Below, piece by piece: positions 1,544-63,137 of a stretch of 64,000 bases of DNA; within the stretch, counting starts at the first letter, position 1; every line of letters starts with the position of its first letter. The translations under genes were made by a program, and so were the position numbers. The DNA is taken from assembly GCA_035702755.1 (NCBI GenBank), contig DASSZQ010000331.1:478-64477 (forward strand), given 5' to 3'. The stretch is from Solirubrobacteraceae bacterium. Its GTDB lineage: Bacteria; Actinomycetota; Thermoleophilia; Solirubrobacterales; Solirubrobacteraceae. Under the pieces are notes generated by a model. The model was given only the letters and a program-made list of their open reading frames with translations, did not search any database and had not been told where the DNA came from.

Positions 1544-1607
1544 CCGGGGGCGATCCGGCCCAGGGGGTCATCCACTCGCCACTCCGGGGGGGATCCGGCC
1601 CAGGGGG
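1544..1607. repeat. Two 24-nt direct repeats, 40-nt period (CCGGGGG[C/G]GATCCGGCCCAGGGGG)
   Basis: 1544-1567 and 1584-1607 differ at one position. They are intergenic, immediately upstream of element copy 1. Both contain GATCCGGCC, which also occurs in box 2 of the copy at 31947-32068. Confidence 0.8.
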
Positions 1608-1816: not shown

Positions 1817-2146
1817 TCATCCCGCGTCGGCGGGCGGGTCCGGCAGGCCCGGCATCGGAACGGCCTCGTCGCCGAACACGGCGATGATGTCCAACCGGCC
1901 CCCCAGCGCGGCCACGTACCGCGACAGCGCCGACAGGTAGACGGTTCCCTCTCCGCTCGCTGCCTCCTCCGCCTCGCTGCTCTCGATTGCGTCGCCGAGC
2001 GCGGTGTCGCTGACCCCCCGCCGGCGGCGCACATCCTCAAGCCGAGCCTCCGCCTCCATCAGCCGGTCGTACATGGCCATGCGCCGCTCGTTCAGCGGTC
2101 GCGCTCGGCGGACCTCCCGCCAGCTCGCCAGTCCCTCGTCGTCCAT
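1817..2146 (-). CDS. XRE-family HTH antitoxin (HigA-like)
   Basis: 109 aa. The C-terminal part LSALSRYVAALGGRLDIIAVFGDE is typical of antitoxins paired with Gp49/HigB-type toxins. GGAGA sits 9 nt upstream of the ATG. It lies directly downstream of the toxin gene. Confidence 0.75.
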   Translation of the reverse strand: MDDEGLASWREVRRARPLNERRMAMYDRLMEAEARLEDVRRRRGVSDTALGDAIESSEAEEAASGEGTVYLSALSRYVAALGGRLDIIAVFGDEAVPMPGLPDPPADAG

Positions 2147-2592
2147 GCGTGAGTTTCTCCGTTTCCCCGTAGATGTCTGTCGTACAGCTTGTCGGCCACG
2201 CGGATGTTGCGCCGGTACCAGCCCCGCCAGTCGTTGGTCTTGTCACCGCCGAGCAGGACCACCGCCCGCTGCCGCGGGTCAAACGCGACCAGCGCACGGA
2301 TGTGTCCCCCCACGGACCGCACCTCCTTCATGTTGTGATGCCGGGACCCGCGGATCAGGCCGACGTGGGGCCGCCGCAGGCCAGGACCCCCCTCCTCGAG
2401 CTTCTCAAACACCTTCGCAATCTTGTCCGCATCGCGGGAGCTGAGCCCCTCAAACCACTCCCGTGCCTCCGGGGTGAGAAGGACGCGCCAGCCATCCAGA
2501 GGCAGGTCGGCTGCGGTCTGCGCAACGCGCCGCGGCGACGGGCCGCCCCGCCCCCGGTCCTGGGTTCGTCGTGTGCCCGGTGTGCCAGCCAC
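2092..2592 (-). CDS. Type II toxin, RelE/ParE superfamily (HigB / phage Gp49-like)
   Basis: WRVLLTPEAREWFEGLSSRDADKIAKVFEKLEEGGPGLRRPHVGLIRGSRHHNMKEVRSVGGHIRALVAFDPRQRAVVLLGGDKTNDWRGWYRRNIRVADKLYDRHL matches the Gp49-like toxin pattern. The true start is probably near 2499, since the conserved core begins at WRV. The ORF tail overlaps the antitoxin start by 55 nt. Confidence 0.75.
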   Translation of the reverse strand: MAGTPGTRRTQDRGRGGPSPRRVAQTAADLPLDGWRVLLTPEAREWFEGLSSRDADKIAKVFEKLEEGGPGLRRPHVGLIRGSRHHNMKEVRSVGGHIRALVAFDPRQRAVVLLGGDKTNDWRGWYRRNIRVADKLYDRHLRGNGETHAWTTRDWRAGGRSAERDR

Positions 2593-16782: not shown

Positions 16783-16910
16783 CCGAGCGGTCAACTCTGT
16801 TCGAAATGCGGACCGGGACCTGACGGTCTGGAACGAACCCGCCGCCATACCGCACTCACCGACGACATCGCACGGCGCGATCTCGATCTCGCACAAAACC
16901 GCTGCTCCGC
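16783..16910 (+). repeat. Dispersed TIR-bearing intergenic element, copy 2 (most diverged)
   Basis: The 106-nt core (16800-16905) starts TTCGAAATGCGGACCGG and ends GATCTCGCACAAAACCGCTGC, compared with GAATTTCGCACAAGCCGGCTGC in the 31947-32068 copy. The offset-25 box is degenerate (CGGTCTG). Confidence 0.6.
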
Positions 16911-16935
16911 ACCCTCCCCGGCGATGGACGTCAGT

Positions 16936-21361: not shown

Positions 21362-21399
21362 CGCGGGCCGCCGGCGGGCGGCAGCATGCCCCGGCGCAC

Positions 21400-21416
21400 G
21401 GGGTCATCATGACCCC
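21400..21416. promoter_or_regulatory. Perfect 17-bp palindrome GGGGTCAT-C-ATGACCCC
   Basis: Read directly. It lies 39 nt downstream of the GGDEF/HD-GYP stop and overlaps the ATG of a possible 57-codon ORF (21409-21582). Confidence 0.4.
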
Positions 21417-21619
21417 TGTGATGTTGAGTCCGATGCGCCTCCGCGACGGGTTGCTCGTGCTGCTGGGAATGAGCGCGGTCCGTCCGGACGGGCGGCTTGC
21501 GCTGTTCTCCGGCTGCGCCCTCGCCGGCTATGGGGCCGGCGCGCTGATCGCCGCGCCCCGCCGGCGCGCCGGAGCACGGTGACCGGCCGCTGTGGCCGCG
21601 CGCCGCCACCGCCGCGCTG

Positions 21620-21890
21620 GCCGGGGACCTGGCGGGTGCTCATCGGCTTCGCGGTTGTGTGGGAGATCGCCGGCGCTCACCCCACCCGGGGCGCGCAGCT
21701 GGTGCCGGCGTGCTGGAGGCGATCGTCACCCGCCGCTGGCCGCCCGGGCAGGGGCGCAGCCTGGGGATTCTGCTGGGGCGATCGTCGGCGCGGCCGCCGG
21801 ACTGGCCCTTTCCTCCACGCCCGGCCGTGGCTGCCGGCGCTGCAGCTCACCCCGGTCATCGTGGTGGTGGGGGATCGCGTCGCCTGATCG
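21620..21890 (+). pseudogene. Possible frameshifted remnant of an ABC-transporter permease (nitrate/sulfonate/taurine type)
   Basis: Permease-like peptide pieces appear in the expected order but in three different frames: WRVLIGFAVVWEIAG, then GVLEAIV and RSLGILLG, then GAIVGAAAGLALSS, then WLPALQLTPVIVVVG. No intact ORF exists. Confidence 0.3.
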
Positions 21891-22006
21891 GTCTCACCGG
21901 ATGTGTGTGGGCACGCGTGCCGGGAAGGCCAGACCGGCTGGGGCCCATCGCGACCGCGGCGGTACGGGACTCCGGGCCGGCTCTTCCGGGTGGGGCGGTG
22001 ACGCGC

Positions 22007-30255: not shown

Positions 30256-31647
30256 ATGAGCGGTGGACGGGGCAGGGGGCGGAGGTCCGCGACGGTACTC
30301 GCGTCGCTTGCCGCGGGATGCCTGGCGCTGGGTTCAGGCGCGCTGGCCGCCCCGGCGGCGGCGCAGGCCGCCGCGCCCGGCGATCTGTGGACCTACGGGA
30401 CCGCCGGCACCGGCGACACCGGGCAGCAGGTCATGCCCCAGACGAGCCCCAGCATCACCGGCCTGGCCTCCGGCGGGTTTGAGATCGCCACTCAGGAGCC
30501 CGGCACGTCGGTCTCGATCGCCGGCGACGACGGCAGCGGCCCGCTTCATCTGGGGATGGCGTCCGGCACCAGCCCGTCGATCGCCGGCTTGCCGGGCGGC
30601 GGCTGGGAGATCGCGTTTCAGGCCAACACCACCGACCTGTGGGTGACCGGCAGCGACGGCACCAAGGACTGGCGCCTGGGCATGATGCCGGGCAGCAGCC
30701 CGGCCATCGCCGGGCTCGCCAACGGCGGTTACGAGGCGGCCTTCGAAGCGAACACCACCTCGCTGTGGACCGCCGGGACCGCGGATGAGACCAATCACTC
30801 CCTCGGCATGGCCCGCGGTACCAGCCCGGCGATCACCCGGCTGGGCTCCGGCTATGAGACGACGTTTCAGGCCAACACCACCGACCTGTGGACCGATGGT
30901 TCAGGAGGGGGAAGCGATCTGAAGCTGGGGATGGACTCCGGGACCTCTCCGTCGGTGGCCGACCTGGCCACCGGCGGCTTCCAGTCGGCGTTTGAGGCGA
31001 ACACCACCGATCTGTGGACGACCGGCTCGGCGGGGACCACCGACACCCACCTGGGGATGGCGCCGGGCACCAGTCCCAGCATCACCGGCCTCGCCCACGG
31101 CGGCTTTGAGGCCGCCTTCCAGGCCAATACGGGCGTGCTGTGGCTGTACGGCTCGGCGGGCACCATCAACACCGGAATGGCCATGGCGCCGGGCACCAGC
31201 CCCAGCATCGCCGGCCTGAGCGGAGGCGGCTACGAGGTCGCCTTCCAGGCCAAGCCGCCGCCGCCGGCACCGGTGGTCGCGGCTCCGGTGGCCTCCCCCG
31301 TGCCGCTTCCGCCGGCCCCGGTGGGAGCGAGGCGGCCGCTGCGGGTCAAGGTGACGCTGAAATGGACCTGGAATCACGCGCACACGCGCCTGATGGGTCT
31401 GCGGCTCGGACGCCGCCCCCATGACACCACGGTCCGACTCACCTGCCGCGGCCGCGGGTGCCCCCGCGTCAGCGCCCGGGCCGCCGGCCGGCGGGGGATG
31501 GCGCGGCTTGAGCGCTCGGTGCGCCGAGCGCGCTATCGCGCCGGCGACCACATCTTCCTGACGCTCCGGGCCGCCCGGTACACGCCGGAGCGGATTGAGA
31601 TCGCCATCCGCAACGGCCGGCTTCCCGCGGTGCGCCTGCTGAGATGA
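30256..31647 (+). CDS. Secreted protein with seven tandem repeats of about 42 aa (propeller-like) and a basic Cys-containing C-terminal domain
   Basis: ATG 30256. Signal peptide ...LASLAAGCLALGSGALAAPAAAQA. Seven units have the skeleton LW--G--G-----LGM--GTSPSI-GL--GG-E-AFQANT. A PPPPAP linker follows, then a 120-aa Arg-rich domain with CRGRGC. Confidence 0.75.
   Translation: MSGGRGRGRRSATVLASLAAGCLALGSGALAAPAAAQAAAPGDLWTYGTAGTGDTGQQVMPQTSPSITGLASGGFEIATQEPGTSVSIAGDDGSGPLHLGMASGTSPSIAGLPGGGWEIAFQANTTDLWVTGSDGTKDWRLGMMPGSSPAIAGLANGGYEAAFEANTTSLWTAGTADETNHSLGMARGTSPAITRLGSGYETTFQANTTDLWTDGSGGGSDLKLGMDSGTSPSVADLATGGFQSAFEANTTDLWTTGSAGTTDTHLGMAPGTSPSITGLAHGGFEAAFQANTGVLWLYGSAGTINTGMAMAPGTSPSIAGLSGGGYEVAFQAKPPPPAPVVAAPVASPVPLPPAPVGARRPLRVKVTLKWTWNHAHTRLMGLRLGRRPHDTTVRLTCRGRGCPRVSARAAGRRGMARLERSVRRARYRAGDHIFLTLRAARYTPERIEIAIRNGRLPAVRLLR
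30382..31251 (+). repeat. Coding tandem repeat array, 7 units of about 126 nt
   Basis: Example: TTTCAGGCCAACACCACCGACCTGTGG recurs exactly at about 30616 and about 30865. The unit lengths are 43, 42, 42, 41, 42, 42 and 38 aa. Confidence 0.8.
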
Positions 31648-31946: not shown

Positions 31947-32068
31947 GCGTCGAGATGGCAGCCGGCTTGTGCGAAATTCACCCGCACGCGGCCGGATCTC
32001 GAACGAAGTGGCTGCTATGCGGAACTTTCCGCCGAGATCCGGGGACCGCCTGACGATTTCGAACACAG
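31947..32068 (-). repeat. Dispersed TIR-bearing intergenic element, copy 3 (best preserved)
   Basis: The minus strand reads GGAGCAGCCACTGTG-TTCGAAATCG...GGATCTCGG...AGCAGCCACTTCG-TTCGAGATCCGGCC...GAATTTCGCACAAGCCGGCTGC. The last 22 nt are the inverted complement of a box (GCAGCCGGCTTGTGCGAAATTC). Confidence 0.8.
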
Positions 32069-32164
32069 TGGCTGCTCCGGATGCGGCGGCGAGAGGACGA
32101 CACGCGCTTCGATGGACGGAAGCCCACCAGATTGGGGGGGCGGGCGGCATCCGGTGGCCGCCGC

Positions 32165-42268: not shown

Positions 42269-42396
42269 GCGGAGGACCCGGTTTGTTCGAGACTCGGACC
42301 GGCCGATCTGATCTCGCCGGTATGTGCCCTCTGGGGGCAGTTATGTTCGAGATCGTCGGCGCCGATCGGGATTTCGAACGGATCGGAGGCGTCCGC
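42269..42396 (+). repeat. Dispersed TIR-bearing intergenic element, copy 4
   Basis: The core (42286-42390) has TTCGAGAC at offset 1, GATCTCG at 25, TTCGAGATCG at 61 and GGATTTCGAAC at 84. The 5-prime end GCGGAGGACCCGGTTTGTTCGAGAC matches the reverse complement of the 3-prime end (GCGGACGCCTCCGATCCGTTCGAAAT). Confidence 0.75.
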
Positions 42397-62180: not shown

Positions 62181-63137
62181 ATGACGATCAGTCTCAGACG
62201 GGCCGCCGCCAGCGCGCTCGGCACCGTGACGGTGCTGGGGGCGATGGCGGGCGTGGCCGACGCGAAGACGTTCCGGGGCGCGGTGGTCCACCACAACCGG
62301 CGCGCGCATTCGTTTGTCGTCGCCGACCGCAGCGGCCACCTCTATGCCGTACACGCCAACCACGCTCCCCGGATCGGCAGCGAGGTCATTGTCCGCGCCC
62401 AGCGCCTGCGCAACGGGACCTACCGCCTCCAGCACGTCCGGCGCGCCGGCCACGCCGCCCGGCACGTTCGCATCCGCGGCGTCGTCAGCTACGTCGACCG
62501 GCGCACCGGCGCGTTCACGGTCTCGGCCCCCGGCGTGTCGATGCTGGTGATCCGCTCCCGCAGCCGCCGCTTCCACGCCGCCGATCTCACCTCCTCCTCC
62601 GGCACGGGGACCACTCCGCCGGTCGGCTCGCCGGTCGTCGTCACCGGCACGGTCAACGACCAGGGCGAGATGGACGACCAGAGCGTCCAGACCGTCGGCA
62701 CCCCGGCCACCAGCATGGATCTGGAGGGAACCGTGCTGTCGGTCGACCCCACCGCGGGGACGATCACCGTCTCGGCCGATGACAGCGAGCAGTCCGGCGC
62801 CTCGGTGGTCGTGACCGTGCCCTCCACCCTGAACATCAGCCAGTTCAGCCAGGGCCAGGAGGTTGAGCTCCTGGTGCAGCCCACCGGCACCGGAACCGCC
62901 ACCCTGCTCGGCTCCTCCGAGGATCAGAGCGCGCAGTCGGCCAACGACGGCGCCAACCAGCAGGGCGACAACCCCAGCGGCGACAGCCAGGGTGGGGACA
63001 GCCAGGGCGGCAGCCAGGGCGGCGACGGCCAGGGCGGCAGCCAGGGCGGCGACAGCTCATCGCAGACCGGCGGGACCGGCTCGCAGACGGGCGCGACCGG
63101 CAGCGGCTCGTCCCAGAGCGGCGGCGGCCACGACTAA
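62181..63137 (+). CDS. Secreted protein (DUF5666-like repeats) with a Gly/Ser/Gln-rich C-terminal tail
   Basis: AAGGAG lies upstream of the ATG. Signal peptide ...LGTVTVLGAMAGVADA. There are three beta-rich modules of the form G-V--VD--TG-FTVSA. The tail is GDSQGGDSQGGSQGGDGQGGSQGGDSSSQTGGTGSQTG. Confidence 0.65.
   Translation: MTISLRRAAASALGTVTVLGAMAGVADAKTFRGAVVHHNRRAHSFVVADRSGHLYAVHANHAPRIGSEVIVRAQRLRNGTYRLQHVRRAGHAARHVRIRGVVSYVDRRTGAFTVSAPGVSMLVIRSRSRRFHAADLTSSSGTGTTPPVGSPVVVTGTVNDQGEMDDQSVQTVGTPATSMDLEGTVLSVDPTAGTITVSADDSEQSGASVVVTVPSTLNISQFSQGQEVELLVQPTGTGTATLLGSSEDQSAQSANDGANQQGDNPSGDSQGGDSQGGSQGGDGQGGSQGGDSSSQTGGTGSQTGATGSGSSQSGGGHD
63003..63056 (+). repeat. 27-nt in-frame tandem duplication (2 copies, 1 mismatch)
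   Basis: CAGGGCGGCAGCCAGGGCGGCGAC[G/A]GC occurs at 63003-63029 and 63030-63056, encoding QGGSQGGDG / QGGSQGGDS. Confidence 0.85.

Follow-up and report, generated by a model that had tools for sequence, protein, structure and literature searches.

Several families of short extragenic sequences are described that resemble the element reported here. REPINs, REP doublets and BIMEs are extragenic sequences of about 100 bp in which two short, imperfectly palindromic units lie in inverted orientation, with the potential to form a long hairpin, and their sequence is lineage-specific. In REPINs, the spacer is less conserved than the REP ends on either side of it, and these ends still pair (PMC3116915). 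REPIN populations consist of tens to hundreds of near-identical copies accompanied by a single cognate RAYT (Y1 transposase) that is flanked by REPs. Palindromic MITEs, together with the ERIC, Correia and RUP repeats, are non-coding, intergenic sequences of 100–150 bp, palindromic as a whole and without a transposase of their own. The attC sites of integrons have two inverted pairs of short boxes, four in all (R''-L'' ... L'-R'), around a variable centre, with conserved symmetry, and their function depends on the folded single strand. Intrinsic terminators, including bidirectional ones, are found after stop codons, especially between convergent genes, and have symmetric hairpin potential; a repeated terminator motif ('TRIT') has reportedly been described in mycobacteria, but our interpretation does not draw on it. 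To our knowledge, RAYT/REPIN systems have been described mainly in Proteobacteria and not in Solirubrobacterales, and almost no non-coding repertoire has been described for the Solirubrobacterales and Thermoleophilia, which are abundant soil actinobacteria. Our literature search found no report of repeats in Solirubrobacter or of REPIN/RAYT in Actinobacteria.

The window, by which we mean the whole 64-kb stretch of Solirubrobacteraceae DNA that was analysed, contains four colinear elements of about 125 bp (Table 1). Their existence had been claimed in a preliminary description of this DNA and is borne out by the alignment, by a sequence profile and by the pattern statistics given below. Searching the 64-kb window with an nhmmer profile of the four copies returns exactly these four places, and nothing else rises above noise. 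Each copy carries four short boxes with the core CGARAT/ATYTCG and the full 10-mer GTTCGARATC, whose orientation alternates in every copy (forward, reverse, forward, reverse; F-R-F-R), and the core-to-core spacings of 23–24, 37 and 23–24 nt are kept within 1 nt in all four. Anatomically, an element comprises two inverted-repeat units of about 36 bp that lie 60 bp apart, each made of two 10-bp arms (GTTCGARATC and its complement) with 15–16 bp between them, the whole being framed by imperfect GGAGC...GCTCC ends. For the copy first taken as reference, the extent in Table 1 is to be preferred over the interval 31947–32068 given earlier for the minus strand, which loses the 5' GGAGCAGCC arm.

Table 1. 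Repeat copies and other features of the 64-kb window (positions in nt; gene strands in parentheses; box cores with their start positions)
Feature	Position	Profile match	Centre	Boxes	Left flank	Right flank	Gap	Remarks
Copy 1	1630-1757	1630-1756	1691	core starts 1648/1671/1708/1732	MFS transporter gene stop (+, 1480)	small antitoxin-like ORF stop (-, 1817)	convergent	57% G+C
Copy 1, 10-mer boxes				GTTCGAGATT 1645-1654; GATCTCGTAC 1670-1679; TGACGAAATC 1705-1714; AATTTCGCGC 1731-1740
Copy 2	16783-16911	16784-16908	16845	CGAAAT 16802; GTCTGG 16826; CGACAT 16863; ATCTCG 16886	cupin gene stop (+, 16717)	Rieske/DUF2231 gene stop (-, 16936)	convergent	most diverged copy
Copy 3	31952-32080	31954-32079	32018	+ strand: CGAAAT 31972; ATCTCG 31996; CGAGAT 32033; ATTTCG 32056	42-aa-repeat protein ORF stop (+, 31647)	sulfotransferase gene stop (-, 32165)	convergent
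Copy 4	42269-42396	42270-42394	42332	CGAGAC 42288; ATCTCG 42311; CGAGAT 42348; ATTTCG 42371	beta-lactamase-family serine hydrolase gene start (-, 42122)	small putative secreted-protein ORF stop (-, 42538)	tandem	best palindrome
16-nt direct repeat GATCCGGCCCAGGGGG	1552-1567 and 1592-1607							spaced by 40 nt, shortly before copy 1
Small acidic ORF	1817-2146 (-)							antitoxin-like C-terminus
Gp49/HigB-like toxin gene	2092-2592 (-)
Stretch of ~645 nt	21362-22006							no recognised gene; candidate ORFs without Pfam match; no element copy
Tandem 126-nt (42-aa) coding repeats	30381-31269 (+)							motif '...FQANTTDLW...'; in the ORF ending at 31647
Short-period (15- and 27-nt) coding repeat	62942-63056 (+)							G/D/S/Q-rich; inside ORF 62181-63137, without Pfam match

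All four copies fit a degenerate four-box pattern, for which 100 dinucleotide-preserving shuffles predict 0.00 matches. The 8-mer TTCGARAY or its complement occurs seven times in the 64 kb, each time inside one of the four copies, and the only two-box inverted pair outside the elements has a mismatch and lies inside a gene. Pairwise identity between copies amounts to 85% in the box cores (24 columns) and 79% in the 10-mer boxes, as against 46% in the rest of the element and 37% in flanking DNA; none of 5000 random 24-column sets reached the identity of the cores. Pairwise BLAST between copies is weak, only copies 2 and 4 matching at E = 1e-7, in reverse-complement orientation. It is the boxes and their spacing, not overall identity, that define the family, and chance resemblance is excluded by the pattern statistics.

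All four copies are extragenic, lying in gaps between called or Pfam-supported genes. Three of these gaps are convergent and one is tandem, none is a divergent promoter region, and each copy is located downstream of a gene end, copy 4 being at the same time upstream of the next gene. The G+C content of the elements is 57–64% compared with 72% for the window, in agreement with the earlier remark that they are AT-richer. The genes that flank the four copies are unrelated and share no common theme, which argues against a regulon. The idea of a regulon promoter or operator was likewise rejected, given that related genes do not follow the copies and that three of the copies lie between stop codons. 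The assertion that the copies occupy the four largest gaps without an intact gene does not strictly hold, since the ~645-nt stretch listed in Table 1 has neither a recognised gene nor a copy; this stretch may be a decayed membrane-protein gene.

Along the window, the centre-to-centre distances are 15154, 15173 and 10314 nt, so the first two are equal within 19 nt and the regularity is not continued by copy 4. A large segmental duplication as the origin of the ~15-kb spacing was rejected, as none is present. The near-equality was noticed post hoc and may be a coincidence.

Each copy also matches the profile on the opposite strand (E 2e-15 to 2e-7). It follows that the element has dyad symmetry and that the strand of the copies is ambiguous; the fixed strand assignments made in the preliminary description were overstated. 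The best multiple alignment takes copies 1, 2 and 3 on the plus strand and copy 4 on the minus strand, with 71% column identity versus 66% in the orientation adopted earlier. Copy 4 fits the four-box pattern on both strands, and the 23/24-nt spacing asymmetry gives no consistent polarity. Given that the boxes alternate, they could pair as 1:4 and 2:3, forming a long hairpin or cruciform, or as 1:2 and 3:4, forming two hairpins, either in single-stranded DNA or in transcripts.

Imperfect terminal inverted repeats (GGAGCrrCC...GTTCGARAT / ATYTCGmAC...GGyyGCTCC), a MITE-like feature, are visible in all four copies, though the earlier claim that such repeats hold in every copy was overstated. Self-complementarity of the whole element is significant only in copies 3 and 4 (z of 4.1 and 7.0) and not in copies 1 and 2 (1.6 and 1.1). 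Folded as RNA, copy 4 forms one long hairpin of -73.8 kcal/mol (z -4.2), a stability reached by 0 of 200 shuffles. Copy 3 gives a nested long hairpin that joins box 1 to box 4 and box 2 to box 3 (z -2.1 to -2.3). On at least one strand, copies 1 and 2 fold no more stably than shuffles, and these copies have little complementarity outside the boxes. Pairing of box 1 with box 4 gives 7–8 Watson-Crick pairs out of 10, and ungapped spacer complementarity is 33–47% versus 27% expected. The RNAalifold consensus is nested as well, with box 1 paired to box 4, box 2 to box 3 and a small apical stem; its energy is -9.9 kcal/mol and its covariation term -0.19. Four of its pairs show double changes, and most pairs are formed by invariant box positions.

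Among about 60 ORFs of the window scanned against Pfam, no transposase, integrase, recombinase or RAYT was detected, and ordinary chromosomal genes were found instead, as the preliminary description had stated for transposases and integrases. Inspection by eye of the immediate flanks, where the copy boundaries are uncertain by a few nt, revealed no target-site duplication. Rfam yielded no match at gathering thresholds across the whole window, and permissive searches with the copy-3 and copy-4 regions returned nothing relevant; the preliminary description had likewise recognised no named RNA family. A consensus scan of the four gaps for U-tract terminator hairpins found none, save one weak site inside copy 4.

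With REPINs, REP doublets and BIMEs, the element shares its extragenic position, its length, the two inverted units of short imperfect palindromes, ends that are more conserved than the spacer and a lineage-specific sequence; the box layout that would allow a long hairpin is present in all four copies, with significant folds in copies 3 and 4 only. In contrast to REPIN populations, the window holds four diverged copies, with low identity outside the boxes, and no RAYT; in addition, no conserved 5' GTAG-type tetranucleotide is evident in the element. The likeness to palindromic MITEs and to ERIC, Correia and RUP repeats extends to size, non-coding and intergenic nature, palindromic whole and absence of an own transposase. 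Unlike MITEs, however, the element shows no target-site duplication by eye in its flanks and has no known parent IS with matching ends, and it differs from typical MITEs in that the terminal box recurs as a second, internal pair (F-R-F-R). We assign it neither to the REPINs nor to the MITEs, because no target-site duplication was seen by eye and because its copies are far more diverged than is typical.

The F-R-F-R layout also recalls the two inverted box pairs of attC sites. Nevertheless, attC boxes (RYYYAAC/GTTRRRY) are 5–6 nt apart and the sites stand in tandem cassette arrays next to intI, whereas the boxes of the element (GTTCGARATC) are 15–16 nt apart and its copies lie 10–15 kb from each other with no integrase; the likeness is an architectural analogy only. 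As regards intrinsic terminators, the position after stop codons, mainly between convergent genes, and the symmetric hairpin potential are alike. The element lacks U/A tracts, though, and is far longer than a terminator stem-loop, its hairpin is poor in two of the four copies and the primary sequence of its boxes is conserved. The attC, dif/Xer and parS sites, SOS boxes and tRNA T-loops were rejected as identities for the element, their box consensus or spacing being mismatched. A replication terminus was also rejected, as no GC-skew switch occurs within the window.

Regarding its distribution, no copy was found in loci of relatives at 76–83% protein identity (L067, L069, L074-L077; ~67 kb non-redundant), for which about four copies would be expected at the density of the window (Poisson P ~0.015 for zero). 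No analogous F-R-F-R layout on any other 6-mer was found in these loci, which are not syntenic with the window at the copies. Two flanking proteins, the Rieske protein and the beta-lactamase-family one, have homologues annotated as Solirubrobacteraceae, Capillimicrobium and Conexibacter, which places the window in Solirubrobacterales, close to the latter two. Three contigs that other samples yielded for the same species (L070, L071 and L078) are 99.7–99.85% identical and re-cover the window only. Copy 2 recurs among them, as in L070 (99.85% identical), which shows six differences, two of them at 16896 and 16916, in or beside copy 2 and outside the boxes. Exact look-ups of two proteins of the window, one of them aimed at contigs that reach beyond its right-hand edge, returned no record. 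Contig L071 ends at window position 16907, at the edge of copy 2, and L078 at 42204, 65 nt before copy 4; these breaks might come from more similar copies elsewhere in the genome or from hairpin-related loss of coverage.

The strict four-box pattern has no match in JGI metagenome contigs or in viral contigs. A relaxed version, which matches all four copies, gave two JGI metagenome matches, neither a true member, and none among viral contigs; the two were dismissed as chance (65% and 51% G+C, profile score of at most 8 bits). A loose three-box pattern with variable gaps returned at least 66 single matches in genome contigs of unrelated phyla, which were also set aside as chance (at most 20 bits with the profile among the matches listed) and which probably represent coding F-E-I / D-L codons. 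Comparison by blastn of copies 3 and 4 with plasmids, and of copy 4 with phages, yielded nothing relevant, and the family is not in the curated libraries searched. The absence of copies from the relatives and from the metagenome, viral, plasmid and phage sets fits a lineage-specific expansion.

Together, our findings define a repeat family that is real and reproducible, was not previously described and belongs to a well-known general class, that of extragenic palindromic repeats. On the present evidence, it is an ordinary kind of object, with no sign yet of a new mechanism. Judging from sequence features, we give an even chance to the notion that it is a lineage-restricted extragenic repeat akin to REP doublets, BIMEs or MITEs, with putative protein-recognised boxes. 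Against this notion, the four known copies are all very diverged, while classical REPIN and MITE families comprise many near-identical copies; moreover, no target-site duplication is seen and the window contains no parent transposase or RAYT. From the three readings that had been put forward, namely a MITE/REP-like element, a structured RNA and an array of protein sites, the REP/MITE kind and the protein-recognised boxes both fit our results, and the RNA is the weakest.

The concentration of conservation in the boxes points to their recognition by a protein, and the fact that it resides in four 10-bp arms at fixed spacing favours a sequence-specific protein over an RNA conserved for structure only. 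In this regard, the 10-bp arms would be the recognition sites, and the layout would suit two dimers per element, seated on the two 36-bp inverted repeats. The binder could be the transposase by which the family spread, or else a DNA-binding protein of the host that co-opted it; selection would act on replicating masters in the former case and at each locus in the latter. Independent decay of immobile copies would not alone keep the boxes intact, which leads to either selection per locus or active masters that have diverged, and selection per locus on the boxes favours a host function. What is unusual is that the four boxes stay intact and keep their spacing while the rest of each copy is randomised, which hints at locus-by-locus selection, and hence at a host function at gene ends. 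Copies may persist after gene ends because such sites tolerate insertions, and transcripts coming from either side could incidentally be stabilised or ended by a hairpin.

Selection at each locus is also at the heart of a different explanation, according to which the element is a fixed, non-mobile cis-site, a composite operator with four half-sites for a putative lineage-specific DNA-binding protein, kept by purifying selection locus by locus. Possible roles for such a site include organisation of domains or topology, a roadblock or insulator between convergent units, and the handling of replication or recombination. Highly conserved boxes in a remainder that is near background, with spacing kept within 1 nt, are the pattern expected of selected protein sites, half of the copies have no significant hairpin, no mobility signature is present and the first two intervals are strikingly similar. 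We nevertheless consider this explanation somewhat unlikely: no candidate protein is known, a core chromosomal function would not normally be absent from 67 kb of relatives and from metagenome contigs, the equal spacing fails at copy 4 and was observed post hoc, the window shows no GC-skew inflection or other landmark, and known architectural sites such as parS and matS are single short palindromes. A more specific version, which we hold to be improbable, sees in the element a dedicated, lineage-specific and non-selfish chromosomal cis-site, that is, a dyad-symmetric platform of four half-sites placed at the ends of convergent units at intervals of ~10–15 kb, acting as a topological or transcriptional insulator or as a domain boundary. 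Purifying selection on the boxes of such a platform would explain why they are intact amid a randomised remainder.

A further explanation is that the elements act at the RNA level, either as structured RNAs in 3'-UTRs or intergenic regions or as bidirectional transcript-end hairpins, with stems made by the boxes and the alternative pairings working as a switch. In its favour, every copy directly follows a gene end and three copies sit between convergent genes, dyad symmetry would give the same structure from either side, copies 3 and 4 fold well, and the consensus fold is nested with its four doubly changed pairs. That fold is weak, however, and its pairs, being mostly invariant boxes, say nothing on structure; two copies are no more stable than shuffles on at least one strand, spacer complementarity reaches only 33–47%, Rfam offers no matching model, whether thresholds are set to gathering or made permissive, and a U-tract terminator signature is missing. 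What is conserved is the sequence and not the pairing, and we regard an RNA-level role as quite unlikely. Far less credible still are fragments of one decayed coding gene or coding repeat, or a chance likeness of AT-richer intergenic stretches. It is true that in copies 1, 3 and 4 the distances between box starts (24, 36 and 24 nt) are divisible by three as far as box 3 and that copies 3 and 4 have a frame with the reading FEI...DL...FEI. But G+C by codon position in this box frame (F-E-I / D-L) is flat, with 0.62–0.72 at third positions where real genes have ~0.9, stops interrupt it in copies 1 and 2, the frame shifts before box 4 between copies, and the ORFs over the copies have no Pfam match. 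The absence of a conserved reading frame noted earlier is thereby corroborated, the decayed-gene scenario that had been named as a refutation finds neither a coding signal nor a protein-level match, and the pattern statistics exclude a chance likeness, so that this reading is essentially refuted.

If the family proved to be high-copy, it would constitute a new interspersed-repeat system for the Solirubrobacterales, useful in strain typing and in explaining assembly breaks, and it would offer a handle for finding the cognate transposase or binding protein.

Other features lie in the vicinity of the copies or elsewhere in the window (Table 1). The 16-nt direct repeat that precedes copy 1 has no counterpart beside copies 2, 3 or 4. 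The ORF with the 42-aa repeats has no Pfam match, and its product is probably secreted. The antitoxin-like ORF adjoining copy 1 comes after the Gp49/HigB-like gene, which it overlaps by ~55 nt as called, and the two look like a toxin-antitoxin pair.
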